64,000 nucleotides of DNA from Lingula anatina (Eukaryota; Animalia; Brachiopoda). This document shows positions 10,881 to 57,181 of this stretch, piece by piece. Location: positions 13,392,001 through 13,456,000 of the forward strand of contig CM120646.1 in assembly GCA_051362555.1 (NCBI GenBank), read 5' to 3'. A model generated the notes under the pieces. That model did not search any database. It was not told the DNA's origin and saw only the letters and a list, made by a program, of their open reading frames with translations. How positions within the stretch are numbered: the stretch's first letter is position 1; every line of letters starts with the position of its first letter. A program made the translations under genes and the position numbers.

Positions 10881-13800
10881 ATGAATTCGATCGTGACTTT
10901 GCTGGTAAGTTCTCTCTCTGCTTCTCTTTTGTCTCTCTCTTTCTCTCTCACTGCTAACGCGCTACTGATCCGTGGAAGTATATATACCGGTAGATACATA
11001 ATTTAAAGTTGTCAGTAGTTGTTTATTGTCCGTGACATTTGTACAAGTTCAAAATACAAGCTCAAAATAGCGTGCTATAATCTTGCAGTATACATCAAAG
11101 CAGAAAAACGCAAAATTACATACTTATAGAGTGTGAGGGAAGATAACTCCTAAACACGTTTTTTCATGTAGAATTTTCTTTTAAGACAATTTTATCACTT
11201 ATCTTTTCAACGATGGCACTGCGGTATCTGATTAGTTATATATCATAGGCGTGTCTACAACGCTATCTTGTAACTTCTCTCCCTCAGTAGGACAACCACG
11301 TACGCATAAATAAATACAAAGACATAAAATCAAAAATTGTTTCATTACATAATATATAAACCATATATTTCAGTTTTTTGTCTCGTGTGTGAGCACCAGC
11401 GCAATCCCCTCTGTGGTCTTAAGGCCAGAGGTCAAGTTGATAAACACCAGCTGGACGGTCTACGCTTGCCCGTCAGATGGCGCTGCCGACGACCAGACGA
11501 CAGCTTTCGTCCTGCCCGATGGAAACGGTTACGTAAGACCCAATGACGTCGTGATCAGCAAACAGGCAGGAGGGATGATGCACAAGATTTCTCACTCTGC
11601 ATCACTTGGTGAGTCCAGACAAGGAAGTAGATATAGGACGACCATGGTCCAGAAAACATGATTTATTGCTGTAGTGTATATCCTATTTTTTTCTTTTTTG
11701 AAAGTTTGCCATCTCTTTTTCCAACGTTAAGATCTACCATCCACTGCCTTCTAATCAAAAAGAGGAATAAAGATTTTCAAAAGAAATAAGTGGGCAGGTG
11801 TAGGGTTTTCTAAGCACAATGTTGTGCAGAAAATAAATTGTGAATCGGACATTTTCTATACTCTTTATTGTCTTTCACACAAAATTTTAGGTCAATAACA
11901 CGCTTTGGCTTTCAATAATCATGAAGAGAGTTTCGAGTCATGGTGAATTTCATGGAACATCTTCGCAGATTGTGTATAATCAATATGTAACACGTCCCTG
12001 TATGAAGTGATGTTCAAATAAATACAAGCTTATAGACTCGAATACCATAAGTTTGGATACGTATCTAGATCTAGAGTACACGTTAGAACGCTACAGTGCA
12101 CAAAAAGAGAAATACACATGTATATCAATTAACTTGAAATTTCGGCTATTTTTTTGAATCGTTAAGAATAGTACATGTAACAGTTTAAACCAATATACCC
12201 TCCGTAATATAAGTTTTAATGGTAAAAATCCTGTCGTCTGACGGGTAACGGGTGAAGTCAGGGAATTCAGAAAACTTTGCAATTTGGTAACGCACTATCA
12301 GTATCTTATATGAAAACTAAGAACCTATACTGGTTTTCAGCTGTTTGCGCGTTACATATACCGCCTATTCATCTGGTTGCAGCTAAATTACACACTGTGA
12401 ATTTGACATGTCTTAGCTCCAGGTCAATTTTGAAATATAAATGTTTTAAAGACATCCTATGAATAATAAGGTGTTTCAGAGTTTTGGCCACCCAGGTCGG
12501 CTCACGTACTCGGGATTCACGTACCAGACATAAAGGACGCTCAAAAGTTTTAACAGCAACACTTTTTAAATTTTTTCAATGTAATCACATATCAAGCTTA
12601 TGACTAGTGGGAAATTAGTAGTCGTGCACGTCCTTTGTTATTCAGTTTTGCCACCAGGCCGTGACATGTTTATACCATTTCCTGTTTGACGGAGTTGGTT
12701 ATGCACGGGTGTACCGGTGTCACCTGAAGAAACCGTCGTCGTGAATAAACCGTTCTGACGGATTATTCACGCGGGGGTAGCAGTCTGTTGACTTACAGTA
12801 CGTAGCTGCACATACATTTCCAACATTTCCCCGTAGAGAAAGTTGTAGTTTTATCAAACACACAATTTCTTTTTAATGAAAATGACTGAACTCTGAATTG
12901 AAAGAACATTGTAGAGTGAAAACATTTATACTACGAGTCTTAGATCTACCACGTTTTTCACACAGAGCAAAACAGTTCAGTCACAATCAAAAGCTCACTT
13001 CCAACATTCCCCCGTATACTGTAGTAATAAGATTATCAAATTCATACTCTCTCATGACGAAAACCACTGAATTATGAATTGAAAGATCATAGTTCAGTGC
13101 AAACATAGCGCCTACTTAGGACGACATCGTCATACCGGAAGTTACTTCTTTCAATCTACCCTCAATGCGCATGTGCAGAACGGTTTCGTCACGGCACGGG
13201 TCTATCACGCTACACCGGTTTGGGCGGGTCATTACGAAGCACTCATTTCGGATGACTCCTTGGGCACGTTTTTGAAAGACTTTCCACGTCGTTAGAGCAA
13301 CAAAGTAGTTTTTTGACTACACTATTTCGGATATAATTATCTCTGAAGTAGATTTATCACTTGGTTGCCGTAACACTGTTATTAATGCGAATTTACGAAT
13401 GACTTATTTTGAAAGAGGTCCTTGTCATCTCGACCAAGACTGTAATTTGTTGTCACATGAATACACATTTGTGGTCATATACTCACATAAACAAACATGT
13501 TTTGGAAGATCAGGGTTACAAAGATATTGTAATTTATGGGTTGGAGGAAACAGACTGGATTAAGTGGTATGGGAACGTTCATACCAGGCTCAGAGAGACC
13601 GAAAGTGGTTCGGTCTGAATGGCGCGGAGGACATTGGTGTGAAGACGGTGTTTTTCCTTAACTCAATACAAAATGACACAAACTTTGAATGATTTGGAAC
13701 ACTGGGATTGTTTACGTAGCCACAGTTCAGGTGCAAAACGGGAGTTCGGTCAAAATTGCAAGGTACGGCGACACCATTTTAACTGACTCGAAATCGGTTT

Positions 13801-16374
13801 GCTGTGACCTACTGTAGTGTGAACGAGACTAATATCCCTGATATTGTTTTACCTAGATGGATTAAGATATTCGTGTAAACGCCGATGACATAATTTTTAA
13901 AATAAGATTTGACACAGTTGACATGCGAAATATTTTAATATTATAATATTATAAAATATTTTAAAACTGCTCTTAGTGTATCAACTTTAATTTCCTGGGA
14001 CTTCGCAGTTGAGAAAAGAGATCCAGTGAGTTCCATAATAAAGCTCAATAGGGTGTTTTACGAAAGAATACTGAAAGTGCTTTATGATACGTGAGAATGC
14101 AGGCACCAGGGTACATATTACAAGAACGCTTTCGCATTAGGGAAAGTTATAAGGACTGTTGTAAGCTTCAGTGACCAACTACTAGTAGTAATTGAATTAA
14201 CCATCTCTCTCTCTCTCTCTCTCTTTTCTCTCTCTCTCTATTTTGTTGCTTGTTTTATTACGTAATACCTGTATGGTGTTTTGATTTCAGGGACATACGG
14301 CGTATTTTTAGGAAAGATTGCAGAACTTGATGACGTGTTTGAACAAGTGAATATATCTGAACCGTCCCAAGAAACAGAAGAGATCGAAAGACCAGAGTCC
14401 CAAGAGAGCGTTCCTGATTCGAACTTGATTAAAACTCTTACCTCACGGAATGGTTTGGTCTCTGGTAACACCACGGTTGTTAAACTGAAAGGTGTGGTTG
14501 ACCTTGTTGATATATTATATTATATTATATTATATTATATTATATTATATTATATTATATTATATTGAAATGCAGATAATCCTCCAACTTACTGCTACGC
14601 GTGTAACTGTTTTTTCATACAAGTGGGCACAAACGTTTTTGGTTGCTTACATGTTGTTATCAAAATTAGACATTCTTCATCTGAATGTGCGTTTGTACCT
14701 ATTTTAAATCTTTCTATTAATAGGTAGAAGTAAAGTTTGGAAATGCGCAGGGCATGTGTACCAGGGCGAAAACGAGACATCGCACGTGACTTTTTACTTG
14801 GTGATTCCGCGAAGAGAGAGTGACCACATCAATGTAGATGACGTACTGGTAGGCAGTTCTAGCGGCGGTTTTCTAGAAAAAGTGACAGAAATTGTGTCCA
14901 TCCCTTCCCCATGGAGAACAAAGTTCGTCCACACCGAGTTATTGTTTTGTGGAAACCTAGAAGACTCATCAGATGTATTTCGGTACGAATTTTTATTGCT
15001 ATGTCTGTGTATATATACTCTTCGTTCTGGTCGGTATATTTGGCGGTATACCGGATAGCCTATATGTACGTTCCCACCGAGTTGTCTTGAGCTGTAATAT
15101 TTTATTGACTTTGGCGGCAACCCATGAGCTTATCTATGGAAATAACACCTTTGCCAAGTCCTGTAATTGCCACATGTGACACCCAAATATTTTTCTCGAG
15201 TTTATTCCTAAATTTGTTATATTATATGACCATAAATATGCATTTAAATATGCCAAATAATTGTTTGCAGCACTGGTAAACCTATTGTGATAACTTTATT
15301 TAGGATTAATGAAATTCGGAGAGGCTTACAATATACCTCTTGTGTTGGTGGAGATGGAATCCCGGGCCTTCAAATGTTCCAGAGACGGACTCCACGATCA
15401 GTTTCAGTTGGTAGCGTTATACCTGGAAGACCCTCACAAGAGTTTGCTGCAAAGGTAGACCTTCACTCTAGTTGCTATACCTTATAACTCTGGCATGAGG
15501 GGATTTCGTTTTAACTCTGGACAGTAGCCTGTAAAAGGTGTCACATCTGCCATTTGTAATGCTGTTTTAATAATTAGTTAAAATTATTTTTAAATACAAA
15601 AGCGTTACATTTTTCCTGCAGTTTAGGGAGCATGCCTAGATTTTTTTTTTTTTTTTTTTGCCGCGGAAGGACTGATAAAACGATTTTTTCGGCAATCTCC
15701 ACAAAGATTTGTATTTTCAGTCTTTAACTCTTTCATGTTCCCAATTTGGAAAAGCGTTGTTCAAACCAAAGTCACTGTCTTGTTTGCCTGTTGCCTGTAC
15801 AGTACGTTTAAACTTATGATTAATATACAATAATATGTATTATTCTGATTTTTTTAAAATATGACCTCGCTTTACATACTGATATATTTATTTGGTTTCA
15901 CTAAGGTACTCCGAAGTTTCCAGAAAGATGGCTACAACTTCTTTGAAGTTTCTCCTGTGGAATCCATTGAAGGCGGGGAGGTGACTGTGGCGAGCACGGG
16001 TATCACGACAGATAGACATGCAAGACAGAAGAGAACGACATTCACAGCGGGAAAAAAATTCAAGGCAACGTTTCCAGTAACCCTAGGGAAAGTCAAGGTA
16101 AGCACGCATGCGCTTTAAGTTTCAAGAAAATTGTTAACAAGTTGATGGAAGTACATATTGCAGCATAGGTAAAATGTAAGTACGATTCCGGATTAATTTG
16201 AAGTAAAATAAATTTTATCGGATAAAGCAGTAAGCGCCCTTTGTCATTTGATACATGTATTAGCATTAAAAAAAGTACATATTCAACAATAAATTGCATA
16301 TTTTAGTATTCTATCCTATTTATTTAAGTATTCTATCCTATCCACTTCCTTTCTTGTATATTTTATGTCCGTTT

Positions 16375-16463
<89 letters not shown>

Positions 16464-17580
16464 TGTCAGAGAGAGAGAGAGAGGGGGGGGGGGTGTTCGG
16501 GAATCCAAAGCAATTACAACACACAAGTTAAGGAACATAAATACGAGATAAATTCCACCCCGATGACCAAGGTGATGACATTTATTGCAGATAATCAGCA
16601 TTTTTCATGCTTTTGACAGTGGTGATTTTATTCTCGTTATTGTTCTATTTCAGTGACTAATATAATGCGCAAACAATGTCTTGTATTGAGTGGATCTCAT
16701 ACATCTATGGTATGCGAGACCAAAAGACAGGAAGAATTAACCATAAATATCAGTTTGGTCTTGGCCTTGTGCCTTTCTTGCGACTTTGGCGTACTCTGTA
16801 AAACTTTCAAATTTGACAACACATCCAGGAGATGCTATATATACATCCTCAGGGTTACCAATAGAAACCACGCAGATTGTCCACCCTGAAAATAATTATG
16901 AATAATGGATTGATAAATAATGGTGACAGAAACTATAAATTATCCAAACAAACAAACAAAAAATATATATATTTCACTTCATTCTTTTTAGATGGTAAAT
17001 ATGAATTAGAACTGTGGGCCTGTTTCAAGGGTCACATCAATTATGGTCTGATCAGATAAGAGCATTGATATACATGTATATATACAGACATGACATTTAA
17101 TATGGAATGTTTTTCCAATTCATCTTTTCATGCTTAGCTTATCACAGTAACGTTTAAAGTTTTTGTGGTGATCTCTTAAATCAGGTACGGAAAAGGTCAA
17201 CTACAGAATTGGTCACAGGGCCTTCACAAAACGATTGGTACGCGACATTTTAAATTATGTGCGAAACGATACCTTAGTCGGCTTAAAGTAACGGAAGTCT
17301 TTACTTAGACTGAATATAGATTTGATCGTATTGACTCTTCACTCAACACTCTTCAGGGATATACTAACCTTGTTTTTTAATACTTGTTGCTCTTGGTCGC
17401 GGATCGCCCAGGTTAGACATCTTGTCAGTAAGTAGCCATATTAGCTTCGAGTTTTCTTCCAAGAAAAAATCTTCAAACATGAGCTGCGCAGTCTCTAAAG
17501 CCAGTTTTATGTTCGTAGCTCCCTCTTGAAAAGAGACAAAAATGATTTTGTAATAATGTATGTGTGTATTTGTGTGTGCG

Positions 17581-17619
<39 letters not shown>

Positions 17620-20600
17620 GTATGCGCGTTTGTATGTTTACGGAAGAGAAGGAGAGAGTTAAGAAAGAGAGAGAGAGAAGATATTGTCTTACTTCTATTG
17701 TCAATCGCGTCAATGTAAGCTTTAACGGTGGCCAAATTAGTGTATTCATTCAGCTCGAACTCTCTCTCCACATCAGTGGCAAACGTCAATGCACCAACCC
17801 GGGTTCCATCGGGGGCAATAGGACAATGCCTATTGATGAATTCAGCAATCATCTGAGAAATAAAAGCGTGGCTTCCATACATTCAATGCTGCGATGATGG
17901 CATATTAATAATGCAAAAAACCAAACATATTAATCTTTTGGTGTCAAACCAAATACAGGTACATTCATTTTGACAGATCATATGAAGTGGCTCTATCACG
18001 CTTTGTAAACTGTGCATCATAACGCACACATAGAATAAGACTGGGTTCTCATACCTAGATCGATCTAACTGGATCGATCCATCTCCAATGAGTTTCTTGC
18101 TAAATCGCTTACAGCTTAAGCGGCTAAGATGTCTGGCACGCCTACTGAAGCTGCTGAACGTCAATTAATTAATCCTAGAAGCTTCAGTAGGCCTGACAAA
18201 CATCTAAGCCGCCTAAGTTGACTGCAATTTAGCGAGAATCCCCTCGGAGATAGAACAATCTACAGTTAGTGCGATAGGGTCTTGGGATAGTCCGTAAGCC
18301 TGCCTAAGAAGAACCATTCTAATCCCACATTGACTATCTAATTGCGCGAAATATGATTACAATTAAACCACGCTGTATCAGATAAAAATGGGCTAATGCT
18401 CGCCAGATTTATTAATTTTATAACGTACGAATAAATAATTAAATTAGAAATAGCCCATGGTAAGATCACTGACGTGTGGGAGCGGGAGATGAATACCTAT
18501 ATCAGCACCCGGCCGTCAAAGCAAAAATAACTTTCTTTAGATGTTATTTACATCTTAAATTCAAAATAAAACTGTGTTCTTTGGAAAATTATTTTTACAT
18601 ATTGAATTCAGCGTTATCAAAGGACCTCTTACCTTTGTTGCATATTTCTGCACCTTAAACTCAGTATCATCAATGCTCGAACTGCTGTCCAATGCGAAGA
18701 CAATATCAAGATCAGAGTTCTTACTGTTGGTTTGCTCGGTGGTACAGTGAGACACAATCTTCTTTAAAATGTCCGAGAGCTGGCTTGCTGTTGTTGATGT
18801 CCCTTTTTAAAAGTAAAATAAATTCTGGCAATACATGAAATATTTTCATTACAGTTACCATATATCTATATGTCCACTTTGTCATTATTTAGGAAAAACA
18901 GTAGATCCGGAAAAAGATATCAATGGCTACAACTTAGTACATGACTAAGTATATATAATTACTAAGTATATGAAATTGGGGTCAGCGTTTTTTTAATGAA
19001 AATGTACTGATATAAATCTCAAAAAAAGATCTGTTACACCGAAAAATACTGCAAAGCTGGGATATAGATATGATAGTCAAGGTACAATGTTTATCATATT
19101 GAACGTTCTCCTATTCATCGACATTTTATGGAATACAATTATCAATAACTTACCATTACCCCGTGGAATAGAGTTAACCACACACCACTCGTTCAGCAAC
19201 AGAGCAGCAGTCAGAATGAGTGCAAAGAATCGCTTCATATCGGTTGCAGCGTTGGATCTGTATGGCGTTACTATTAACCGCGCTGTCTTATATAATGCTA
19301 AGAGCGGATGCGCCGCTGACACACCTATTGTGTTGTTGTTGCCAATGGCCAATGTAATCACCAAAGACGAATTTAATGGCAGTCTGGTACAAGATATATA
19401 TGTGACATTTGTATGAATTGAGGGGAAATGTGTACGCTCACTGGACGCGTTTAAACATAGCTTCCTCAGGAATGACCTTGTGGTCCAAATGAAAACGTCA
19501 ATGAATAACCTGTATCAAAACAAGTTGAAAAGTACGGAACAACTCGAACCGAATTCTAGAATTGCCTTCTTTCAAAATACACAGAAATGTACGTATATAA
19601 ACAAAAGCCCTAAAGATACGAGAGCTCCACACAGACTGTTGTAATGACAGTCTAAGTGCACCATTGGTCGACCGTAATGCCTTAACCTGCGCTCGTAAAA
19701 TGTTTAATATCTGCAATGAACACGTACTTTGAGACATTAACGTAACAACTGGGCACTAAAATAAGACAACCATTACGCCGGCGCCTTATCAGAAAATGAA
19801 CACGCATTGCTTTGAGGCATGTACAGACAAGAACAAGAGCTTGTCGCCTTGTTGCTATAAGTTTAACTGCAGCGCAGTATGTTGGGTTTTACATTTTGAA
19901 ATGTGGCCATGCCAATTGACTACAAAAAGGCATTTTACAGACCGGTTCTTTACTCTCACATTGATTAAGACCTACAGCATTGGTCAAAAAGGGTTGTCCC
20001 ATCCCCAATTCTATGTGCTTTTATTTAAAAACGATCACGTCATTGGTGTAAACTGTTCTAAACAATGCTTTTTATTACAGATACCATAACTTACAGGATT
20101 AATCGTTCTGAAAATACAAAATAGCGGTGAAATTATCTACATTTTATAGCATTAATTCACATTTAAAGTGTGCACCACTCCAATCTGGTGTTTACTGTGA
20201 TTTCCACAGAGACAAAGAAATGTCTGTTAATTAAATTAAAAAGACACCGCCTAATATCACCGAATTTACACAAAATAAACATTAGGATGTGCTCATTAAA
20301 GGCCACGTGGCTGATGTGTGTGTCTACCGCGTACTGCAATCACCTTCACCAAGAGTAACAATCCTGTTTTGTGGGAAATTGTCCCACATTCTTTATAAAG
20401 AACTTGGCGAAGATGGTCCAGATTAGTTGGAGATTGGTTCTCCTCTGCATTGCATACTCCAATTCATGCCACAGGTGATCGGTAGGGTTAATATCAGGGT
20501 TCAAAGATGGTTACCCCATCCTCCGAACGTTGTTTCTGCAACAAATCACTTGCCAGTACCCTGAGTGTCAGAGAAACGTAAAAGCTAGCTTGCTAAATAT

Positions 20601-23296
20601 ACCTCGTGGTGGAGTCGCTTTTACGATTACCACAACAAAAAAAAAAAAAAACTTTTTTAGAAAAAAAACAGAGACTAACTTTGAATTTAAAAATGGATTC
20701 ATTAACCATTGTTAAGTATTGGAAAATTGTTGTTTACTCCAGGGAATTCATTTTTTGGCCAAAACGAAGAGTTATTATTATCCCTTTAAACCGTAAAAAG
20801 TATATCCAAAGGCCCCTGTGTAACCAAGAACACCATTCGCACAAACAGCACAGTACTTATGTCGCCCTCTGTACATACATCCTTCACACGAGAATTGGTT
20901 GTTTCCTTTTAATATATATATATATATATATATATAATCTCTTCAGGTCCCATGTGGCACCTTCACAGCCTCGGCGAAGGCAATTTTCAGGGCATATCCT
21001 CGAGTATCAATCACACTGAGGTGGAGCCGCCCATTCCTTCACAGGATCAAAGCCTCCCTCGACTCCTCGGTGACATTAAGGGTGACTCTGAGACTGGACT
21101 TCAAATGCAGGTATGCGTCGACGCATTAATCAGTTTTAAATCGTATTGGTTATTTATATGATGTGCCATTAGGTATCATTGCCTTCGAAAATGGTATTGA
21201 ATTAGATAATTCAATTTCACTCGTTTCACGAAGCCTTTTCTGGTTAACACTGCACTTAAGCGTTTCGGAGTTCGCTGGCTATGTTTATTTGAAAGCCTAG
21301 GTGAGTTTAGCGACTGAGTCTATGATGGTTGAAGATGACTGCATGAATGTGACTATAGCCTACCATTTTGAAAGAGGCTGCGGACATTTAGTTTGCGTCA
21401 CACGTATTCTAACACCAAGGCCTGTATGTATCACAAAAAACGTTTTATTTATCATAATCAAATGAATGCGTATTGTTGATACACTTATTGAGACTACCTC
21501 AGATCAATTGGAACAGCTCTGGAAGTAAACACGGTGAAACAATACATAGATAAAACCTGTGAATTCAAAACTACCGGGTACACTTTACCCTTTTTTACAA
21601 GTACACAGCTACTGTAGTCTGACTAACATGTTTGTCGATTTTGATGATGGGCTTGGGATTCTAGCTTTTCTCACATCGACTATGGCTTAGACCTTAATGA
21701 TATATTCTTTGGAAAGGATCACGGTTAAGACTGGTTTTGTTGCGTTTCAGGGTGTCACACACTGGCCCAAAGAAAGCTAAATTCAACCACCCTATTGACA
21801 ACAGACATCTGGTCTCTTTGTGTATCCCAATTTGGGCTGGCCTATGTATCCCTGTTGGTATTCTCGCTGATTTGAAGGTGAAATATGTATTGGAAGCACA
21901 GGTAGGTGTTGGTAGCAAAACACGAATGGTGTGGAATTTTTGCCTCCATCGAATTTTTGACTGCGTTAATTTTGATACGTTTCCATTTATGCGTATTCCT
22001 AATTTGGTTGAAAAGACCACTTCGAAATCAAGTGCAGTCTCTTTTCATAGTGAGTTTTGGTTTGTTGCATTATTCAATTATTCAATCTTTGCAAAGAGTG
22101 TCCTAAAATGTATAAAGACCACATAATACTTATCACACCTCTTACGAAAATTTCCATTGGGAGTTATATGGGACTCTGCAGACGTCTTATGGTATTCCTA
22201 TCATATGTCCTATAGGACCATATAGGATTTGGGGCCAATTTCCTATAGGGTCCTGGGAACAACGCCTTATTTTTAAACAACATAATTAATCATTTGTCCA
22301 GGGGAAAGGATTTGCTGAGGTATCTCTGGAACGAACCGGAAGTGTGGACATGTCGGCAGGCTGGTCCAGTAGTTCCGGTGTCTTCAGTTCAGGTCCTGAT
22401 GTAAGTACATGACAGATCATCTGGAAATTACTCGGCCGGCAATGAAGTTATTGAGAAATTAGCCCGAAGAAAATAGTACTAAGGCTGTATAGGGCTGGGT
22501 CCGTAACGCATAATTGATTTTGAACGATCATTTCTTCTGCCATGTAAAATATACTGTACATTGATCTTTATTTAATTATTTGTTTTATGTAGTAGCTATA
22601 CGAGATAATGCAGCTTTTTCACACTGACCAAATTGTACATCCATGTATGCAGTGCAACTTCCAGAATGTGCCCAAAAACAAGATTTAAAACTTTAAAAGT
22701 TCAGTCAATGTCGGCAGTTTGATAAATTTCACCTTCATCAAATATTTTTTCTCTCAGTTCACGCTAAGCTCTCCGGCTCCGAAATTGAGCGGTGGACTAA
22801 CACGTGACCAAACGTTTGCGTCAGCAACACTAACTATTACCCCCGCCCTGAAGCTGCACGTCCCGAACCTCAAAACCATAGCTAGATTACTTCGAGCTGC
22901 TGGATGGTGGATTCGAAAAGTACTGAGAAAGCTTTTTAAGGTTGAAAATCAACGTAAGAATGTTATGTTTGATTTTTCTTTCTTTCTTTTTTTTTTTACA
23001 TCTTTTTATTAAAACCCTTTGCATGTTTTGTATTGAAATGGGCAGTATGCGTACCAAGAAAGCAGTGTGATGTAACAAGAAACCAGTTGATCCGGTTTGC
23101 TCTGGGTGGGGGTCAGTTGAACGGCGCCCAAATTGGTCCGTCTGTAGCATTTGCATGCACCCAGTATTCAACATATAAGCAAACAGAAAAGCAGTAATAG
23201 TGTTCTCGATTGATAGTTCCCGTTTTGTTTTAAATTCACATGTGAAATACTTTTTAATCATATTTCAGAAGTTTTGAAAGTATATATTTTCACTCC

Positions 23297-23344
<48 letters not shown>

Positions 23345-25675
23345 TTTTTTTGCTTAACTCAACATTATGTCCTCGTGGCTAATAGGCTAAGTAAATCCCT
23401 TCTTTTTCCTCCAAAATATTGGGAGTTTTGGGACTGCGTTGGTGTCGTGGATATAAGCATGCCAATCTTTACGTTTTCATTCACACGAAGTTGTAAATTT
23501 TACAGGCAGAATCCAACCCATACTTGAGTTTGTGGTATCGGCTCCACTTGTTGGACGTGCGAAAGTAACCGCTTGTCCAAGTGACTGCAACCCGCCAAAG
23601 GACAAACTCAAAGTAGAAGGACATGCGGGGTTACCCGAGAGCATTGACGGGCACCTTACGGTTAAAGTTCCACTAACAAGCATCTCTAAAACATGGAAAG
23701 TGTTTAGCATACCTGGAAAACATTACGATGGAAAGTGAGTGGCCTCTTAGAAATGTCTTTTTGCTGTTATTTGATATACCGTTGTGACAGGAACCGTAGT
23801 CCTTTCCCCATTACTTTGTACAGGTGGCATCCGTCCCACATACTAACCCCAATAGTACGCCTATCTCTAGCCTGTACTAATCATATGGGACTTGGACTTT
23901 CATTCCTAGGGCTACCATTTTTGTCACACGGGCCTCTGTTTTTCGCCCAATTGTCTCATTAATGTTGACCTCTGACCAGTGGCTAAAAAAGCTGGTTGAG
24001 ATAGAACGAACTAATCTGTTCCCAATGGTCTCATGACCGCTTGAGCGAGTTCGATAATATATCCTTGACCAGCAAGTTAAGGAATAAAGTTATGCAGATA
24101 AAATTATGCTCGACTATTCTTTAAGCACTATCTTTTAATATATTTTCGAACTTATTTATTTTATGAACGTAACCCACATTTCAGCGCGGCTAAATTAAAT
24201 TTTTTTTAGTTTTTTGTCAAGCTGCGGATTTAATGCTATATCTATATTTTGCGTAAATGAAACTTACAGGATATACTTTTTTCATTATATAAAAAGAGAC
24301 GGTTTCATTTTTCAGAAAATGTTTCGCATCCAATATAATCAAATGTAATGGACCACCAAAGACTACGCCTACCCCACCGACAGAAGAACCTACAACTCCT
24401 CTGAGACCAACAACCCCGCGCCCATCTTCCACAACAGAACCTTCAACACCACCAACAACGAGTTCCCCATCAACTATGGTAGATTCTTCCACTCAGTCAA
24501 CCCTTACAATAACATCGAGCCCAACTGTAACAGCCCAACCCCCTACTATGACTGAATCCAAGCCAGCAATAACAAGTTCCACATCGACTATGACAGATTC
24601 TTCTATCCAGTCGACCTATTCAATAATATCGCCTTCTTCCTGGGCAACAGAAATTACAAGTATGGCTGAAACACCATCAGCAACAATAAGTTCCACGTCG
24701 TCTATGACAGATTCTTCCACGCAGTCAACCCCTAGGATAACATCAACCCCAACTGTTACAACAGAAGCCACAATTATGACCGAATCTACACAATCAGCAA
24801 CAAACCCCACAACATCGACAATGACAGATACTTCCACGCAGTCAACCTCTTCAATAACATCGACCCCAACAGTCACAATAGAACCCACAAGGATTACCAA
24901 CATCCCACCCGACGGAACAAATCCCCCACCACACCCAGAAACTTCTCCTCCCTCGACGTCCCCTGCAAACACATCAGACGAACCGCAAGACACGACGAAT
25001 CCCACTCCGTACGAGACCCCATCTTCTACACACACAACCTCTCCCTGGCTAACAGGCTTCACAGTGAAAACAACTCCCCTCACACCAAACACAACGGAAC
25101 TCATCACTACAACATCAGCGCCAAACACCACTTCCTTTTCCACTGAATACCCGAATGAGGACATGTGCGCCCTAATGCCCTGCGAAAATGGAGGTATCTG
25201 TGTAGATGGACAAGGCGAAACCTTTTCTTGTGTTTGTCCACAAAATTTCACTGGGCAATTCTGCCAAAATAGTAAGTCAGATTTTAGTCATGTTTCCATT
25301 AAAAGATAAACGTAAAAGTTGCGTTTATAACCTGACATCCTCGATAAATACCTACCGGTTTACAACATATACTTTTTGTCGTGTATATTATCTTTTTGTA
25401 TCATATTAGTCGAAATGCTTGTCTTATATCGTTCGGCGAAACTGGACATTTCCTTAAAAATGTAAATTTTGAAAGGTAAGATGATAGAGATGTGCCACGG
25501 ATCTCAGTTGGTTTTAGGTGTCACTTTATTTTAAGATATTGTTTTCCATTTATTTTCCTCAGGAGTCAATGGTTGGACATGTACGTGTCAAGGATGCAAC
25601 CCACAGACCTTCAGGTGTACCGGGGATCCACGCTTCCCCGAGTGTGACTGTGTCAACTGTGACTGTGACGTCTAA
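10881..25675 (+). CDS. Uncharacterised secreted multidomain protein, ~989 aa (signal peptide, triplicated pro-region, furin site, basic beta-rich domain, mucin stalk, EGF, Cys-rich tail)
   Basis: 13 phase-consistent GT-AG exons: 10881-10904, 11374-11608, 14291-14491, 14724-14982, 15304-15454, 15906-16097, 20947-21110, 21751-21901, 22302-22400, 22758-22953, 23506(or 23491)-23734, 24316-25271, 25563-25675 (2970 nt). N-terminus MNSIVTLLFFVSCVSTSA. EGF domain CALMPCENGGICVDGQGETFSCVCPQNFTGQFCQ. Confidence 0.8.
12817..13106 (+). repeat. Diverged ~110-bp direct repeat (2 copies, ~182-bp spacing)
   Basis: ttccaacatt(t/c)ccccgta...ctgaa..tgaattgaaaga.cat..agtg.aaacat occurs at ~12817 and ~12999. Confidence 0.55.
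16378..16494. repeat. Compound (TA)n(GA)n microsatellite with G-run
   Basis: Directly visible. Other microsatellites lie near 2684, 6784, 7868, 14513, 17584, 26700, 33741, 39548, 42271, 54263, 60940 and 62132. Confidence 0.9.
16737..19238 (-). CDS. Secreted single von Willebrand factor A (VWA) domain protein, ~239 aa, nested in intron 6 of the plus-strand gene
   Basis: Exons 19238-19154, 18802-18633, 17852-17693, 17524-17369 and 16885-16737 (720 nt, phases 1/0/1/1). Signal MKRFFALILTAALLLNEWCVVNS. VWA motifs DLDIVFALDSSSSI (MIDAS DxSxS), TRVGALTF, GATNIKLAL, LIWLLTD, ICVVSIG. TATATAA lies ~50 nt upstream of the ATG. Confidence 0.88.
18045..18290. mobile_element. Foldback (long imperfect palindrome) MITE-like element in VWA gene intron 2
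   Basis: Left arm ...ttgctaaatcgcttacagcttaagcggctaagatgtctggcacgcctactgaagct pairs with right arm agcttcagtaggcctgacaaacatctaagccgcctaagttgactgcaatttagcgag...; centre ~18165. Ends are approximate. Confidence 0.65.
20340..20565 (-). mobile_element. Tc1/mariner transposase C-terminal fossil
   Basis: Minus translation NNVRRMG*PSLNPDINPTDHLWHELE...NLDHLRQVL matches the Tc1 motif WPxxSPDLNPIEHLW. Related to 50965-51185. Confidence 0.75.
24476..24900 (+). repeat. Coding tandem repeat, 4 x ~114 bp (38 aa, Ser/Thr-rich mucin)
   Basis: M(V/T)D(S/T)S(T/I)QST motif with ATGs at 24476, 24590, 24704 and 24821. Confidence 0.8.
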
Positions 25676-36645: not shown

Positions 36646-38029
36646 TCGATCTATACCTCATGGGGATTTGAGGACTGAGTTTGACAGATAGAACAATAAC
36701 AACGAGCGAAATGAAAGAAAGATAGATGACAGAGCTAAAGACCACCCCTCAATTTACTGTGCACTGATAGAATCAGCAGTGTAAAAGATAGTACGTAGCT
36801 TTAGCGTAATTACTTTTCAATGCTAGCTCAAGGCAAGCAGGCAGGGTGTTTGTTCAAAACCACAACCGGGGAACCAAGCACAAGTCTGCTGTAAGGTTTC
36901 TGCAGAGAAAAAAACAACCGAGCTTTACTGCAACTCGTTTTCATAATTCAGCATCATCGTGACAGCTAGGTCGCCGATGAAAAAACATAAGTAGGAACAT
37001 TATCCCGCCGATGAGAACGTTTGGACGACTTCGCCCATTAATTTGAACACAGAGTGTGCTTTTACAAACATTTATTCAAAACTAACCACTTACCAAAACA
37101 ATGTCGGACGGAACAGCGGGACAGAAATGAATTCGAAATTGGTCTCATTAAGAAAATCTGCTGCGTTAAAAACAAAGCGCTTGCACGGTCTACGTAGGAG
37201 GTTAATTACTCCGTGTTAAGTCAACATCGCAGCCAGATCGAACAGCCAGGGAATCCGTTTGATAAATAATCCCATGGAATAACTTTACTCAACTAAAACA
37301 AAGTGAATACGGGCGTCGAGCTAGGGTTACCCGCTTTAGATACATAGAGCCCACAGCTGGGCATTGACATTACAAAACTGGATATTTTACTGCGCATCGA
37401 CATTACTGGCTTCGAGGTCTCCAGATAGCAGACGTTTTGAAAGGCGAAATACCAAGAGGGAGAACGTTCTTGTTAAGCTGAACAAGCACAACGTGATTCG
37501 GTACGGCCATAGAGCAGATTTCAACGGCAAAATAGTAGGTGACGTGTTGGGCCCGACAGCCGGGGAAAGACAGATACAGAGGACATAGTTGCAAGGGAAT
37601 TTTGTCGAATAGCATGTGGGTGAATGTTATTCTTTATGATGTACATGAAAACGCATCATTTGGAAAGTCGTGACATCAGCCCTTGACATATCACATTAAA
37701 ACTGTATCTCTGTTTCATAGGTTGTTTAGAGGGAAAATTCATCTTTGGTAATTCGACGGCAAAATTTGGGAGAACAATTGCCTAAGAAGAGGCAGTGATA
37801 ATCTTTGGCTGATGGAAAGTCTCTTTCCGACTGTTTGAATACGATATATAGGTACAGGAGTGGTAAATCTTGTTGACACGTGTATGTGCTATTGACGTTT
37901 TCTCTGTAATCAAGGACCTGAATTTCGGAGCGAAGTCAGGGAATCGAATGTGATCGATCACCGTAGGTTACCGTTCCCGGTTCATTATATCATGGATAAT
38001 TAATCTGTTAACGTTGAAAAAAGAGAAAG

Positions 38030-39545
38030 ATGCAGAGAAAACCCGGAGCTTCGTTTACGATAGACGCCTTAATTGCACCTACGTCGCCCTCCACGACGTC
38101 TACGCAACCCGCCATAAGCGACGGCACAGACGCACAAAGCGCACGTCTGTCAACGCATTTCCCGCTACTGTATGGGGGCTATCTCTCTCACCCCGGGCTT
38201 ACAGGGACAGCGTCCGACGGTCTCTGCGGCGGACATGCATCACCAGGAACCGTGTCGCTAGCTGGGTCCATTTATAGACCGTATGACAGTGAAAGCAGGT
38301 TTCACCTCGCGACGCCGGCAGTGACTCGCTCGGGCCCCGTAACGACGAGCGAGGATCAAGGCAGGTATCTTCACACGTCTTCCAAGTCAGCGTTTACGTT
38401 CACGCTACGAGGTTTGACCTCCAACGTTGCTGCGTCGTCGGCGCTGGCGTTGTCAACGTCCACCACGGTGCATGCGACCCAAACCAGTGTGACTTGCCCA
38501 GGAACCTCCGTTGAGTTGACAAAACCAGGTACGTGCACATCGGTTAATATTTTCAATAATTTGTAAGTTGAATTAAGAAATAAATCCCCACCTTTCATGT
38601 GAAGCACATCAGGCAGAAGTTATTTTACCCGCGACTCCCTCAAATAGTTGGAAAAATTGGCTGGGAGTTACTCATATTACCGCAAATAATAATGATAATA
38701 AACATGAATGTAATTATAAAACAGGACAGATTTTTCACTGATAAGTCTTAATTAATTCCCAAAATATTTACATGCACCTAAAATATCATCTGACGCTGTT
38801 AGGTGTGAAAAACAACCGAGGTACCGAGATTATAAAAAAGATGTTAGTGCTTGTAAAGTTCTTGGTTGGCAATAGATTTTAACTCTAAATGTAGTACTTC
38901 TTTTGTAGTTTAATAAATTTCCAGTTTTATGAAACTATCCAGGATTTTATTAGGTTTTTATACACGTATATGTGGTTGCTAGTGCAAAAGCCACCTGTAT
39001 CTCGATACTCAAGGAAAAATGCACCCGTATATAATAAAACAGAAGTACACGAATAAAAGCGGGTAATATTCTGCATGCCACTCTCGTTCAACCTGACACT
39101 TTTAATGCCGTTATAATTTAAAAGCTATATAAGTTCGTCTAGGTGAAAAACGCGGAAATATGCAGGTGGCTCTAAATTTCTGTCGTGACAGTTATTTATA
39201 CAGATACACTGCCATTTTGTTATGACTATTGGGTCCAATTATTATATAGGTTAACAATCAATTTTAAAATAAGCATTAACTTTTTTTCAACTACACTTAA
39301 TTAACGGGAGCAAATATTATATTACAATGATTTTATAATTTTGGGAAGAATTCGCGGGGAACTTGTCTTTTGGGTAAATAAATGAAATTGAAACTGTTAT
39401 TTATATTAAATTGTTTTCAAATTAAACAATGGTTCAATTATCGAGCTAGCTGGGACTAAAAAATCATTCAAATTTTCGAAAAAAAACACTAAGATTTCCC
39501 AATTCATTGAGACTAATAACAAATGTTTTAATACACAAAAAAACA

Positions 39546-39580
<35 letters not shown>

Positions 39581-42266
39581 TATAATAATAATAATTTATA
39601 TTTGATTAAGAAATATTATTATTATAGATTTATGATATTTATGTCTTCTTCATATTACAAATAAAACAAGAACCCTAAATACAACAAGGACTCGTGAAAG
39701 GCTCGCTCTAACTTTTCTCAATACCGTGACATAATCCGCTATTAAGTCACTGCTTTAAAAAAATCGTGCTGTGACTTTTATTGATTTTGCCGTCATAATT
39801 TTCATTTTGTTATAGTCTGGTTTATTCGAATACGATCAAAATTATATTTTGTTTCAAAAGAATTACGATCAAAATGTCATGCAGTGTCTGGATTTTAATC
39901 AGCAAGTTGTCTGCCATTAAAGAGCTAATTATGTTGTTAATTTTACAGCCTGGACAGCTGCGCCACCGGTGAAATCCTACATTTTAAAGGACAATATTAT
40001 GCTGCCGTTTTGTTGTCTTTAGAACAAAAACTAAATTAAAAAACTGCAGCTGAGGGCACATAAAGTGATTCTCAGGCTACCAAAAAAATTAAAATATCTG
40101 GAAGGTACTTTAAAATTGGTTTTTAAAACTGCGAGCAAGATTGTGCATGAGGAATAGTATAAAAATCAGACTTCATATAAGCATATTTCATTAAAATTAG
40201 GTAGGCTTTGTGCCTTATTCGGAACCGCCAGAATCACCTTTATATAAAATGATTAAGTGCAATCAAAACGGAAACGTGTTAAGTATTATTGTGAATATGA
40301 CCTTTGTGTTACTTAGTTTGCGATTTTTTTACTTTTGTGTTGATATATCATCCGGGTTAGAGTCGCTTACATTAATGGAACTGGGTGCTCCAACACATTC
40401 AATGCGGGTCTTCTCCATGGATTGTAGTGAAAATGTTTATTTTCCAATATTTCACCCAGCCTCTACCTTTTTTCTCCCCTAGATGAATTAATCTTCATTC
40501 TCAACTGATATATTACTCGCTCAATTACTCCCAATCAAAGGTCAGATATTATTAACGCCGTTTTAAAGTAATTTCAGTCATAATTGCTTTTTTGTATGAC
40601 ATAGGCTCCGTTTACGTTGGAAATACTTGCCTCGACTTGACTCTGATTTAATCATGTTTGCCAAAATGCATTATCTTAAAAGCGAGACCCTGTTATCTAT
40701 ACTGTTTTACCCACAGTAGCACTGAGGACCTTAAAGTGATTCGCCGTCATAATCGAGAAAGATTGGAGTAGAAAAGTCTATGGAAGAACATGTGTCTCAA
40801 ACAACGGTGATTGTGAGTCACGTTTCTCTGCAAGACGAAGTGGACAGGATACTCAGACGACATACTGTAGTCCCGGGCTAATTTAAATTAAAATTATAAG
40901 TAACACATTGAAAATTGAAACTATTTTATTTTAACTACCAAGTATTAGCTCCAAATCTGGTTCGGCTCGAGGTGAGGTGTGAACAGGCCGCTAACCGCCT
41001 TTCATCACACACCGGCTCATCACTGCAACCTGTGACTCATAAATGTCAAGCGAACAAATAAATTTTAATCATAGGGAAAATGTGTTCGTTTAGGCAGATA
41101 CAGAGACGAGTCTTGACACATCCAACCTTTGTGCGTTGTTCTGTGGGGAGACGTTAAAATAAGGGGCTTTGCAGCGGTTTCCTACGTGCAGGGTTTCGGT
41201 GCTTGTTCATAATAAAGCGGGGAAGGGGGCATTTAATATTTGACCTTTTGACTATAAATATGACTCACTAATTTATCGAAACTGAGTGATTGTGTACTTT
41301 CGTGTGCGTGTTTTGCCTTACGTGTAACTTTATTTCAAGCTATTGTTTGCGTATGGAGGACGTCAAGCAGCGCGTTTTAATAACTTGGCAACCGTCACCT
41401 TGTGAAACATTGCATTATCAACGACAGTCATAAGAAAAGAGATGAGACCGCGGAAGGGAGATTTTAAGCACGTTCTTTTTTCAATCAATTGTCCATGATA
41501 TATGCGTTATATTGAGTCCGAGCTCTAGACAACTGTCTTCAGTAAAACATTGTAATTATGTTTTCCCTCCAAACTGTACTAAACACTGAATGAAGCGAAG
41601 TATGAAAAATAACGATGAGAAATTGAAAAGTTACCGTCTAACCCACACGACCAACTTGTGGATGTTATTAATCAATGGAGCCTGCCACAGAGACAAAGTT
41701 ATTAGCATTGCCGCTGCCACTAATTAACCGAATATTAATGTTATTTAATGTACTATTAATTGGCATTGCCTTACGACTGTCGCCGCGGAGTTTGTCGCAT
41801 GCGGTCTCCGCAGGGCATTATTTGACATTACGATACGCTTTCACAGCCATTTTAGAACGCCGCTATTTACTACCAGATCGATTCAAACACGGTTGCAGAG
41901 TCCAGAATTAGCACACATTAGGTTTGAATTCATGCCGTTACATGTACCACGACAAGATTTTCAACTTTCCCTGCCAGCCATATTTGGCTCCCACCAAAAG
42001 AAATTCACGTTCGCGCGAGCGCAGTTACATGTACCGGTACACATACATGTATAGCGTATAGTTGTAGTGCAGCGGCACTGTCTGAAGTAAATATATAGCT
42101 TAATACGTGACTTGTCTGGACTGTGCATTTAAAACTTCGTCAATAAACAACGCCAGTCATAACAGTCATTGAAACTAAGAAAACAGTCTTGTTTTATTTC
42201 TTCGACCCCAATTTACACGGATGCTCGATTTGGTGTACAAGGTTAAGAAGGGTAATTATGGTTGCT

Positions 42267-42325
<59 letters not shown>

Positions 42326-45300
42326 GGGTGGCGGGCACGATGTTCAGTGTGTATTAATCAATTAAAAGAACATCTTTTTGTCTTTGTGCGTACGAAAAAT
42401 AAGTTGATAGCATCAGTTTTCACTTGCTTTGAGTATTTTGTTGACCGTTGAAAGGTTCCATCAGATGTGTAATATCAACAGAAATGTAGAAGTTCTTCCG
42501 TGATCAATAGTTTGAAAAATAAACTGATACATTGTACTTTACTGTTAGCAGACGACATGCTGTCTAATAAAGTATCAGCTTATTTCTCAAGTTACTTTTG
42601 TATTCATTAAAGGCGTTTTTACCGTACATAAACACTAAGCAGAGAGAGGGAACAAGTTGCTTAAAACACGCAACCGATTGTAGGTGTTCGCACGCTTGCG
42701 TGCGTGCGTGCGTGCGTATGTCTTCCTCTGACGATCCTCTCGTTCATTTTCTTCACTGAACCCCACAACAATTAATAACTCCGTCTAGTAGATAGAGACA
42801 GCTGTGTAGTTAAAAGCGATGATCTATTGCTCTAATTATGGGCTGATTAACTGCTCAATTAGGCGCCCGCATGATGGGGTAACGGAGACGTGCTTGTGAA
42901 TAAGGCACGGCTTGGACTGCGGACTACTATACAAAGTGATTCATCTGTGTATTCTTCGGCAGACGCGGCCGTGTCCCTTTACGATATGGATAGCTTGGAG
43001 TGAGTTTTGTGAATAAGCGTGCCTTACAGCTTAGAGCAGTTAGCAATACGTGAGGTTTATCTAGTTTCTTCAGCCGGTAAAGAACGACATGCTGAAGTAT
43101 TTCCTTGCTCCAATATTCACGATTCCTGGTCAATTATAATGAAATGTTATTGGGTATCTTTAAGTAAAGGACCAACGTAAAAAGGGTAGAAAGTCTCCGC
43201 TACAAACTAAGCCCACTTTAAATTAAGAAATTAGTCTCGTTCACATCAGGTAGTAGACGTTATGAAGTTTTGAAATGCGTGTTTGAAACAAAAAACGATA
43301 ATTTCAGGAAGATATGAAATCGGCAGACAGTTTCTTTGTACGAATCATTATCGTCCTGTGTGAACATGGGTGAATTAATTATTATGTGAAGGAGAACTGT
43401 GCACGGATATACTGTGCAGGCGATCAAAAATTTAATCAGCAATGCGGGCTTGGAAAAATACTGGAACAGGCGGAAAAAAAGTGAAAGCAAACTTTAGCTG
43501 TATATAAAGCACGTGCTTCATTCCCACGGAGAAAAGCGAACGGCATTTCACTTTTTTTTTAAATAAATATAAGTATAAAAAGGAACAACAAATATCATTT
43601 TAGATACGAAGGGACGACTATGGCTGTCAGGGTGCTGTCGTGGTTCTTAACAAAGGCTTGGAATTGTTTAGAAATATGGGGGCAGAAACTTTACCAGCAG
43701 TTCCATGTAATTGAAATACGGGTGCAGCGTCAATTTACATTTTAAAAATGGAAAAGAAAAAGCGGGGAAAACATAATTTGGTTTTGTATATAATCTATGC
43801 CTTGTTTATATCACTGGTAAAACTTAATACATTCGAAAACTAAAACAAAAAATGTCCATTTCTTTTACATATGATTGTGTATTTGTCACAAATGAAAAAT
43901 AAAATAAAGAAAAGTAATGGTATCTAGCCTTAAAATGTACAGAAGTTACAGCTATTTTAGGATGGGCATTGTAAATCTAAAGACAATTTCGATGGTTAAA
44001 AGTACACCAAACTTTATCTGGAACTACAAATGTGCACGAAATTAAGGGTGACCAACTGCTGTAACCAACCTGCCTGGGTACATACACGACTGGAATACCA
44101 AGTACCATTTCACAGTTAAATTAACACCATGAGTTCTGTTTTCGGCGTCTGAAATATATGAACCTGACAAATAATTTTAAAGGTTCATTGAACAAGTCTC
44201 ATCTATTTCCCCGTATCAAGCTATCATCATGTTTCGAGATTAATTTTGGAATTAAGGGCTTGTTTAGGGTCAATTTAACAAGGATTATCTATTCTGTCCA
44301 ACGCATATTTCACCGATCATTGCCAGTCCATCAGATCGTCAGGGGATCGTAGTAACTCAGAGAGAGAGGCAACGGTTATGCGCATGATCGAGGAAACAAA
44401 TCTGTAGCTATTTTTGTATTATGTCATACCTTCACATAAAAAACTTATTTTCCATTTTACGCCTTTGATGCAGAAGTCTTAAGGTCTTGTATAGGTTAGA
44501 TACGTTTTTATGGTAGCTAGAATGGTCAATGGAGGTCAATTCAAACGTATAGTTATTCGTTCATGGTTGGCATTTATTAGGCAGTCTTAATCCTTCTGCA
44601 CGCGCGAACGCGTGCATGTGTATAACGAGTAAAGTGAAATGAGTTTTTTCTGCGATAGTTCGCTTTCACTTACACATTATTGTTTAATAATTAAAAAATA
44701 GGATCTAAGCTACCAGAAAAACACAGTGTCTGAAAATTACCAAGGGAGGGTTAGCCCATAGACTAAAAGTGAAGTGTACATGCAGTTAAGAGTGGACCAA
44801 AGACAAAAAGATGTATATCCAAAGACAGGTGCAAGTGACTAGAATTTATTTATTTATTTATTTATTTATATGCTTTGATGAATGAAACTGCCTGATAATA
44901 GTCCATGTACCGAGAGGTATCAAGCTGTCGAAGGCTGACACGCTCCTGCAGAACTCGTAATTAAAGGCTGATCTGGAGAGTAATTCACACCGTAGCTGGC
45001 AGTATAAACGACCAATTAGCTGGTAATGATAATCACTGAAGTAGACACTAATGCGGTATAACGCGAGATCTGCCGGCGGCACCTTGGCTCTCTTCACTCG
45101 ACGCAGTTTCGGTTCTAAAGTGTTTGGTGACTGCTTCTAGTTCAGGTTTGGTTTCATGATGCAATGGCAATGACGCAACATAAAACCGTATGTGATTGAT
45201 ATTCGGCGATATATGCCTTGGTTGACCTCCGACAACAGTGCATTTCAGAGAGACATTAGTGACCTAAAGTACAGCTCTCCAGAGATGTCACTTTGATTGA

Positions 45301-48300: not shown

Positions 48301-49448
48301 AGTTTGGAGTCGTGCTCGCAGGTGTTCAAATGAGAATTTGAAGACCTATAATCCGCTTATTCTCCTCAGTGTAATGCACGTTTTTTCACTCATATCTTCA
48401 TCCTTGATTCATCTTCGTAATTCGTTTCTCGTTTACGGCAATTGATCACTGTCAAGGCGAAGGCCTCGGGCCATTCGGTATTGTGTCGTGCTAAGAGCAA
48501 TAGGAAAATTTAATCCATTTCATTTTTCTTAAAATTGGATGGTATGATGTCTCAATGCGTTTTCACCCAACGGAAGTCGTACATTACGACAGACAAAAAT
48601 ATTTGTGTAATACTTAATCTCTGCCGATTCATTTTTGTCGCATATTCCACATCCTGCACTAACCATATATACATGTACTACTATACTAACGTTACAGATG
48701 GAACCGATTTTTATAATGTATATGTTTATTTTTAAGTCGTTCGAGTATATGATTTATTCAGTGATACATAACGCATTATACTGCACTCTATCACGGCACA
48801 TGTAGGCTACATGTAGGCCTACCCCAGTGGCAATTTGATTATATCATGGATTATTTCTTTTTTTCTTTTTTTTTTTCAGAGTTTCCCGACGCTGGTATAT
48901 TCAGAAGACACAACGCAGGCGAATCCGAGAGTTACTGCTCAAGTGCTCGCCTAGTGTGCAACAAGACTCCGGACTCGACCACCAGAGACGATATTGACGC
49001 CGATGTCAGCAATGGGAAGGTTGCAGTGATGGAAGACGGGAATGAAAGCGAGACCGGAACGAGCGACAGCGGAAATGGCGATGAGCCTTCTGGGAAGGGC
49101 GAAAAGACTAGACGGAGGAGGACAGCATTTACCAGCGAACAACTCTTAGAACTTGAAAAAGAATTCCACAGCAAAAAATATCTGTCACTGACTGAGCGCT
49201 CACAGATAGCACAGACATTGAAACTTAGTGAAGTGCAGGTTAAAATATGGTTTCAGAACCGTAGAGCGAAGTGGAAAAGGGTTAAGGCGGGACTTCCTCA
49301 AAGGGTTAAAAGTGGTGTTGAGACACCTCAACCGAGCATGCGCAGACCGAAGATCGTGGTGCCTATTCCCATTCACGTGAATAGAGTAGCAATTCGAAGC
49401 CAGCACCAACAGCTGGAGAAGACTATGAAAGCTTTGCAGCATCATTAA
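38030..49448 (+). CDS. gbx: Gbx (gastrulation brain homeobox / unplugged) transcription factor, ~355 aa, 2 exons
   Basis: Exon 1 38030-38528 carries the eh1 motif SFTIDALI and donor G|gtacgt. Exon 2 48880-49448 follows a polypyrimidine tract + cag (phase 1). Homeodomain [60 protein letters not shown] and C-terminal [25 protein letters not shown] are Gbx-diagnostic. Confidence 0.96.
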
Positions 49449-55979: not shown

Positions 55980-57143
55980 ATGGCGGTTTTATTAATTATA
56001 ATAAGATTATTTGCATCAATTGCAGGTAAATATACTTACATGTATATACTCATTATTAAAGTAATCATTAATTGTAGTTATTATAGCATTCTGATAGTTT
56101 TTAAAAGCCTAAGTTAGTTACACCTTTGCCATGGAGTAGTAGAATAGGTGAAAATAACAGATGATGTATTGTATGCATGATTTAGCGAAACGCATGCTTA
56201 TTGCGTCTTCACGCTATTTGACATATTGTTAAAAAATAATTCATTATACGAGACCTGACCCTATCAAGGTAATGTTTGTCCATAGATACCTCTCTACTCG
56301 CTATGTTGTAATGGTGGGGGGTTCTTAGATAACAAAACGACACAGTATCATGTGCAAATTAATTTGGGTAGTTTATAATGAATTCAACATCAGTTTCAGC
56401 AACGTCGAATACAACCACAACAATGGATACAACAGCAACGCCGAATACAACCACAACAATGGATACAACAGCAACGCCGAATATAACCACAACAATGGGT
56501 GTAACAACAGCAGCGTCGAATACAACCACAACAATGGGTGCAACAACAACAGCGTCGAATACAACCACAACAATGAGTACAACAACAACTGCAGCATCTG
56601 CAACAGCAATTACAACGACAGGTAAGACAACATTTGAAACAGCAACTATTTCAACTGTAACTAATACACAAATGATGGTATAAATATGTGCACAACTCCA
56701 GTAGTGTGTAATTTTGAAGACACATTAATGGAAACATAACATGACTGTACATGTAAATAAAGTATCTCCAGCTGATTAGAAACGTTACACGTTGAGCTTC
56801 TCTGTGAAATTTTAACATTATTATCATACTTCGATAGAACTCATCCTACCCCTTACATGGTAAACTCCCTAAGACCCCATTTCCGGAGATTAGATCGATC
56901 TACTTTAGATCGACCTAACTCCCTGGGGGTTCACGCTAAATAGCTGTCAGCCGAGCGGACACGAAAGTTAATTACCCCCTTACAGCTTGTAGCAGGCGGG
57001 ACGGACATTTAAGCCGGATTATCTGACAGTAATCTAGTGAGACTCCCCGCGGGGATAGGTCGATCTAAAAGCTTTGGGAATACAGCCTAAGTTGGCAAAA
57101 TAGACTTCGTCATATTTTCGTGCAATTGTGTTTATTCATTTAT

Positions 57144-57181
<38 letters not shown>

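Follow-up and report, generated by a model that had tools for sequence, protein, structure and literature searches.

The window analysed here is a 64,000-nucleotide stretch of the genome of the brachiopod Lingula anatina (GenBank assembly GCA_051362555.1, contig CM120646.1, positions 13,392,001 to 13,456,000 of the forward strand). Its main subject is a plus-strand gene at 10881-25675 whose predicted product consists, in order, of a signal peptide, three small beta-barrel repeats, a furin motif, an amphipathic beta-sheet domain of ~290 amino acids (aa), a mucin stalk, an EGF domain and a cysteine-rich tail.

Gene structure and expression

Splicing of the thirteen exons, which have GT-AG ends, yields 2970 nt, an open frame of 989 aa plus stop. 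A search with exon 4 retrieved a public RefSeq model of the gene, Lingula anatina LOC106164513, which is uncharacterised, and the window product is identical to its 989-aa isoform XP_013397905 (P0003) at 954 of 989 positions. The initial annotation had described the gene as unannotated, which holds for its lack of a name but not for the gene model. RNA reads covered the exons in three of five runs (X7, X8 and X9, all from one study), with no coverage in X1 and X4. Spliced reads gave joints for at least 10 of the 12 introns, introns 6 and 10 not being among the joints listed; exon depth was similar on either side of intron 6 (4.8 kb), and RefSeq and two paralogues read through it. The reads were mostly 90-95% alike to the window and therefore derive from a divergent population or a paralogue. 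These data confirm that the gene is real and expressed as a single gene, and the layout of one secreted product proposed for it earlier was borne out. The parts of the gene are listed below.

10881-10904, plus: exon 1, start codon and signal-peptide residues 1-8; joint from 10904 to 11374/5 in X7 and X8
11374-11608, plus: exon 2 (aa 9-86), remaining signal peptide and small beta-barrel repeat 1
14291-14491, plus: exon 3 (aa 87-153), end of repeat 1, acidic connector EPSQ...VPD, helix and start of repeat 2
14724-14982, plus: exon 4 (aa 154-239), barrel repeat 2, in which DDVLVG..GGFLEKV matches the bacterial repeat motif
15304-15454, plus: exon 5 (aa 240-290), barrel repeat 3
15906-16097, plus: exon 6 (aa 291-354), end of repeat 3, furin linker and first beta-domain strand
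16023-16034, plus: RQKR furin motif (aa 331-334), position conserved family-wide; RHARQKR occupies 16014-16034
20947-21110, plus: exon 7 (aa 355-408), long strands b2-b3 and the W380 turn
21751-21901, plus: exon 8 (aa 409-459), strands b4-b5
21821-21853, plus: hydrophobic hairpin tip CIPIWAGLCIP (aa 433-443), counterpart of the bacterial FFIGPVPV-type hairpin
22302-22400, plus: exon 9 (aa 460-492), strand b6 and conserved W480
22758-22953, plus: exon 10 (aa 493-557), strands b7-b8 and two short helices
22869-22937, plus: amphipathic, basic, Trp-bearing helices (aa 530-552)
23506-23734, plus: exon 11 (aa 558-633), final beta-domain strands and a C-x3-C pair
24316-25271, plus: exon 12 (aa 634-952), encoding the mucin-like stalk (about 24356-25150) followed by the EGF domain (about 25166-25264)
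25563-25675, plus: exon 13 (aa 953-989), 8-Cys CxC tail and stop; tandem acceptor 25563/25566

The 3' part of the gene is variably spliced. Reads show use of both tandem acceptors of the last exon (25563 and 25566) and also skip parts of the mucin repeats within 24316-25271, and RefSeq isoform X4 (P0001) exits exon 12 prematurely, finishes in a different reading frame and lacks the EGF domain and most of the mucin stalk.

A module of giant surface proteins and bacterial lipoproteins

The signal peptide was called from hydrophobicity and from homologues. Past it, the most hydrophobic 19-mer (residues 429-447) is modelled as a beta hairpin, and a hydrophobicity scan found no transmembrane helix in the 989-aa protein. 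The mucin stalk is 46% Ser plus Thr, and the single EGF domain was matched by Pfam at E 3e-8. These elements had all been listed in the initial annotation, together with the RHARQKR site, the basic region and the alternating strands, and all are present. It had also read the first ~315 aa as a propeptide containing an acidic linker. In the predicted structure this region instead appears as three folded repeats, and the acidic linker corresponds to a conserved connector between repeats 1 and 2. Repeat 1 resembled repeat 2 more than expected by chance (0/1000 shuffles scored as high), as did repeat 2 and repeat 3 (27/1000), while repeats 1 and 3 were not significantly alike as a pair (979/1000); several repeats in homologues were matched by the bacterial hidden Markov model (HMM) described below.

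No Pfam family matched the query at E ≤ 5, hence none for DUF7223 (DUF, domain of unknown function), MACPF or aerolysin, in agreement with the earlier remark that the N-terminal part belongs to no named family. PDB sequence searches returned nothing relevant, and the MACPF/CDC and aerolysin/ETX Pfam profiles had no match among 27 family members. By sequence comparison, the N-terminal ~630 aa are nevertheless not an orphan, being a module common to giant invertebrate surface proteins and bacterial lipoproteins. Word-index searches for homologues returned Lingula proteins only, so an exhaustive phmmer search was needed, which found 49 clusters at E ≤ 0.001 (25 at 1e-10) from sponge to amphioxus. 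Members named among the 20 of 49 clusters looked up come from Lingula, Branchiostoma, Saccoglossus, Tubulanus, Owenia, Dimorphilus and the sponge Oscarella.

Twelve members are giant proteins of 1.8-4.9 thousand aa. These bark-beetle-like or VWD-EGF-cadherin proteins of sponge, annelid, nemertean, hemichordate and amphioxus share the whole module with the Lingula protein (E down to 1e-45), mostly including the furin motif. Beta-helix, SRCR, CUB, MAM and EGF domains lie upstream of the module and VWD, EGF and cadherin domains downstream. A GDPH site, with VWD, follows the module in 10 of the 12, and a C-terminal transmembrane segment is present in 6, the others looking truncated, whereas the Lingula protein lacks such a segment and bears a mucin stalk. 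Lingula and amphioxus also have shorter forms, which carry VWD, VWA or a mucin stalk, and the Lingula gene is likely a shortened soluble derivative of the giant homologues. Comparison of its Cys tail with the CxC linker of the giant proteins gave 15-280 of 500 shuffles scoring as high in five comparisons. At least four further Lingula gene models carry the module (P0002, P0004, P0008 and P0072, of which two are partial), which may reflect a modest expansion or split models.

Neighbours in the ESM Atlas were bacterial hypothetical proteins (0.90-0.92) and the DUF8402 and DUF7223 clusters, which we used as leads only. As an independent test, GTDB genomes were scanned with the motif pattern of the small repeat alone, and 22 loci were found. 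The animal beta-domain HMM had three matches among 998 open reading frames at E 3e-4 to 3e-3, all of them motif-bearing, and a fourth motif-bearing frame scored 0.8. A profile from the matched bacterial frames was found in 40 of 201 genomes of one phylum sample, and a bacteria-only HMM (32 sequences) matched amphioxus members at E 1e-21 (best reversed decoy 7e-7). Alignment of animal and bacterial profiles with hhalign gave a probability of 97% (E 1e-10) over 151-245 columns spanning both the repeat and the beta domain.

The bacterial members are uncharacterised lipoproteins from Myxococcota, Deinococcota and Actinomycetota. Most begin with a lipoprotein-type signal and are thus likely to sit at a membrane. 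They resemble the Lingula protein in having a barrel repeat followed by a long beta domain with the same hairpin tip, and differ in being lipid-anchored, in carrying a single repeat where animal members have three repeats and a furin site, and in the Ig, PKD, FN3 or propeller domains in which some of them end. Among the 31 bacterial members, NCBIfam gave only four single-member matches (E 0.001-0.1) and PADLOC gave none. DUF7223 (PF23865), a fungal domain found with DUF7029, was matched by 4 of the 31 (best 3e-4) and by one of 27 animal-side rows (P0005, E 0.008). Transitive profile homology places the query in a DUF7223-related superfamily, the fungal link being the weak one. DUF8402 and DUF8403 (PF28444 and PF28445) were absent from the Pfam scans and appeared only as labels of Atlas neighbours, no direct test with their models having been made.

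A quick tree placed 24 eukaryote-type rows on one side of a branch (Shimodaira-Hasegawa-like approximate likelihood ratio test, 98). Its branches are long, its sampling is mostly of Myxococcota and several eukaryote-type rows were labelled by architecture; the animal-bacterial split gives neither donor nor direction.

The module, which has no solved fold, connects uncharacterised proteins of three kinds: lipoproteins of bacteria, the DUF7223 proteins of fungi and giant surface proteins of invertebrates. In animals a conserved predicted activation site is added to it. Being short and soluble, the Lingula protein is the easiest family member to express, making the function of the family directly testable. 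A literature search found no paper on the domain (as DUF7223, DUF8402 or DUF7029), the genes or the architecture, with subscription journals and bioRxiv supplements outside its scope. The gene model and a related DUF are already public.

Cleavage, predicted fold and possible function

We assessed conservation of the furin site, located in the linker that joins repeat 3 to the beta domain. Of 48 rows, 9 were left out as too short (under 25 aa) and 39 were scored; four pairs of rows were near-duplicates. A strict RxK/RR motif was present in 27 of the 39, compared with 34 of 1363 background windows of the same length (2.5%). The linker has low confidence in the model (predicted local distance difference test, pLDDT). 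A motif at a conserved position in a linker predicted to be exposed, at a frequency far above chance, strongly supports the furin site called in the initial annotation and makes the protein a predicted proprotein-convertase substrate. Bacterial members mostly have no furin-type site in the alignments listed. One of them (L037:1300-3975) has a basic KLVKR stretch where the animal site lies, hinting that cleavage there may also occur in some bacterial members.

Query residues 336-645 have a net charge of +31 and an isoelectric point of 10.3, compared with a net charge of -6 for residues 21-335. Of 26 rows, 24 had a pro-region of greater acidity than the beta domain. Across the family, beta-domain charge ranges from -17 to +26, with 4 of 26 rows at +15 or above; the Lingula domain stands at +26 and its nearest Lingula paralogues at +2 and +7. 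Strong basic charge is therefore a trait of this Lingula gene rather than of the family.

Family mean hydropathy alternates on strands b2, b3, b5, b8 and b9 between about +2.1 to +2.5 and -1.1 to -1.6. The alternation spans the full ~20 residues (about 65 Å) and the hydrophobic face is rich in small residues, so a buried face, whether in a groove, a curled sheet or an oligomer, fits better than a 10-residue membrane belt. Tryptophans were concentrated on turns of one parity, comprising W380, the CIPIWAGLCIP hairpin, W480 and the basic WW helices (0.50, 0.27, 0.96 and 1.48 per sequence vs. 0.00-0.16 on five other turns), and both the hydrophobic hairpin tip and the Trp-bearing amphipathic helix are conserved. 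Going by strand parity rather than coordinates, the four Trp turns would share one end if the sheet were a simple meander.

An AlphaFold2 model of 628 aa, built on the 48-row alignment, had a pLDDT of 78 and a predicted template modelling score of 0.57. The pro-region was modelled as beta-rich, with confidence of 85-97 over most blocks, and the beta domain as some ten long strands in one sheet, plus two short helices. Fold searches used this model and a 371-aa model of a paralogue. For both, the best Foldseek rows were pore-state MACPF structures (E 2e-4), with template modelling scores of 0.05-0.12 and a root-mean-square deviation (rmsd) near 40 Å, which indicates that the matches reflect long straight strands only. 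VIA-align rows for MACPF had Z 5.3-5.6 and rmsd 4.9-7.0 over 96-119 aligned residues. MACPF/CDC proteins (C9, perforin-2, pleurotolysin B) thus have very long antiparallel strands in common with the query but differ in their kinked four-strand sheet flanked by two helical clusters, which is absent from our models with their two short helices only. The MACPF fold, suggested earlier for comparison, showed no likeness beyond strand length in either search. The best VIA rows were for the most part outer-membrane barrel arcs (about 140 residues at 4.5 Å) and phage small barrels. Barrel repeat 1 reached only Z 5-6.5 against the small barrels of phage tail hubs, MreC and VCA0042, and no aerolysin or TULIP entries, folds likewise put forward for comparison, were among the best 50 rows listed for these medium-confidence models. 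Trimer prediction for the beta domain, run without an alignment and with an uncertain partner fold, gave no answer (score 0.00) and is no evidence either way. On these models, fold checking yielded a medium-confidence beta domain that has no recognised solved fold among the structures searched, a result that is neither proof of a new fold nor an exclusion of unlisted families.

The reading we prefer, with a probability of about 0.45, is of a mucin-stalked domain that furin unmasks and that then binds lipid or docks on a membrane. The Lingula protein is likely secreted and likely matured by furin, and a cut after R334 would free the DUF7223-related amphipathic beta-sheet domain from the three small barrel repeats. 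The more acidic pro-region may mask the beta domain until cleavage in vivo exposes a membrane-facing, Trp-rich pole, which is predicted to bind lipid or dock on a membrane, and the hydrophobic sheet face would be buried in a groove or oligomer. The mucin stalk and Cys tail likely hold the domain in mucus or matrix, and in the giant homologues the same cut would leave it at the tip of a membrane-tethered stalk of VWD, EGF and cadherin domains and a transmembrane segment. Of the proteolytically activated, membrane-active layout that had been proposed at the outset, the furin site is supported, and a hydrophobic hairpin tip and a Trp-bearing helix are conserved as well; a family-wide strong basic charge and a MACPF fold are not supported.

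Several results weigh against lipid binding or docking. The strict furin motif is missing from 12 of the 39 scored rows, the sponge protein among them. The argument for a single pole presumes that the sheet is a simple meander, and the longest of its turns is the helical one; the conserved tryptophans could instead be core residues. On the bacteria-only HMM the query scored E 6e-6, near the best decoy (7e-7), and its bacterial link is therefore transitive, by way of intermediate homologues. VIA-align found no chain at Z ≥ 8 among 48,161, the best values of 6.5 and 6.7 being at background level. TULIP/BPI tubes, with long amphipathic strands and a cationic, Trp-bearing tip, offer a functional analogy only, and their long wrapped helix is absent from both models, in which DSSP assigned two ~10-residue helices to the beta domain. 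Experimental or structural precedent for the proposed docking was not found.

Cleavage may also trigger assembly, as it does in ZP-domain proteins. The open beta-sheet would then polymerise into a filament or scaffold, as a structural or adhesive component of mucus or matrix with no membrane activity. We consider this somewhat unlikely, since it explains neither the hydrophobic hairpin tip, which looks exposed, nor the bias of Trp towards turns of one parity, but it would suit a module found among adhesion and matrix domains (SRCR, beta-helix, MAM, CUB, EGF, VWD, VWA and cadherin), followed by a GDPH site in 10 of 12 giant homologues and by Ig, PKD, FN3 or propeller cargo in bacteria, as well as a hydrophobic face that runs the full strand length with many small residues. 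The context of the module, in giant surface proteins and at the base of cargo-bearing bacterial lipoproteins, is at least as compatible with an anchor or with ligand binding as with a toxin. Cleavage at dibasic linkers occurs in many surface receptors without activating them, and the furin cut could be ordinary maturation of this kind, in which the two parts remain associated and the beta domain recognises a ligand, either protein or glycan. The rows with no strict motif (12/39) and the scarcity of furin-type sites in the bacterial alignments agree with such a role, which we nonetheless judge improbable given that it does not account for hydrophobic tips conserved from bacteria to animals.

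The acidic pro-region, the conserved cut and the amphipathic strands are also what a furin-activated oligomeric beta-pore former of new fold would show, acting as a mucus-tethered defence effector, and the domain charge of +26, the pore-state MACPF structures that fill the best Foldseek rows (E 2e-4) and the outer-membrane barrel arcs among the VIA rows point the same way. This is unlikely in view of the quality of those matches (scores of 0.05-0.12, rmsd about 40 Å, Z under 7), amphipathy over about 20 residues (about 65 Å) instead of a 10-residue belt, a basic charge that is not conserved, the lack of MACPF or aerolysin Pfam matches, and the lack of homology to a lipoprotein toxin of similar layout. 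That toxin, BcpT of Phocaeicola, is described as a protease-activated antibacterial lipoprotein with an N-terminal chaperone-like part, a protease cut and a ~300-aa active C-terminal part, annotated as DUF4848 by its authors (PMC9308784); its layout resembles that of the Lingula protein. Homology was not detected: none of four family HMMs matched it (best E 0.18-0.26, nothing on the bacterial one).

It is similarly doubtful that the module represents a cross-kingdom family of membrane-inserting beta-sheets of new fold, in which a receptor harpoon bracketed by furin and GDPH self-cleavage sites would predate the sponge split in animals, and the Lingula protein would be a soluble, cationic, mucus-tethered pore-former. 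Teneurins, which carry a bacterial toxin-like unit, offer a parallel to such a harpoon on giant receptors. Were the domain to insert into membranes, it would constitute a new class of protease-activated, membrane-active animal protein.

Neighbouring features in the window

Intron 6 contains a nested antisense gene (17369-19238, minus strand) for a secreted VWA protein (Pfam VWA, E 4e-11), with a signal-peptide exon at 19238-19154, exons ending at 18633 and 17693, and one more ending near 17369; its read depth was near zero in the RNA runs compared. Short interspersed repeats at 20720-20790, 17082-17114, 18046-18220 and 23790-23860 attract many unrelated, loose-ended reads. Further downstream, 56372-58691 (plus strand) holds a Thr-rich, stalk-like frame and a 276-aa frame that has tyrosine motifs and resembles a receptor cytoplasmic tail, with no Pfam match to the latter. 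A homeobox gene lies at 38018-49448 on the plus strand (Pfam E 3e-24), which from its sequence we take to be of Gbx/unplugged type.

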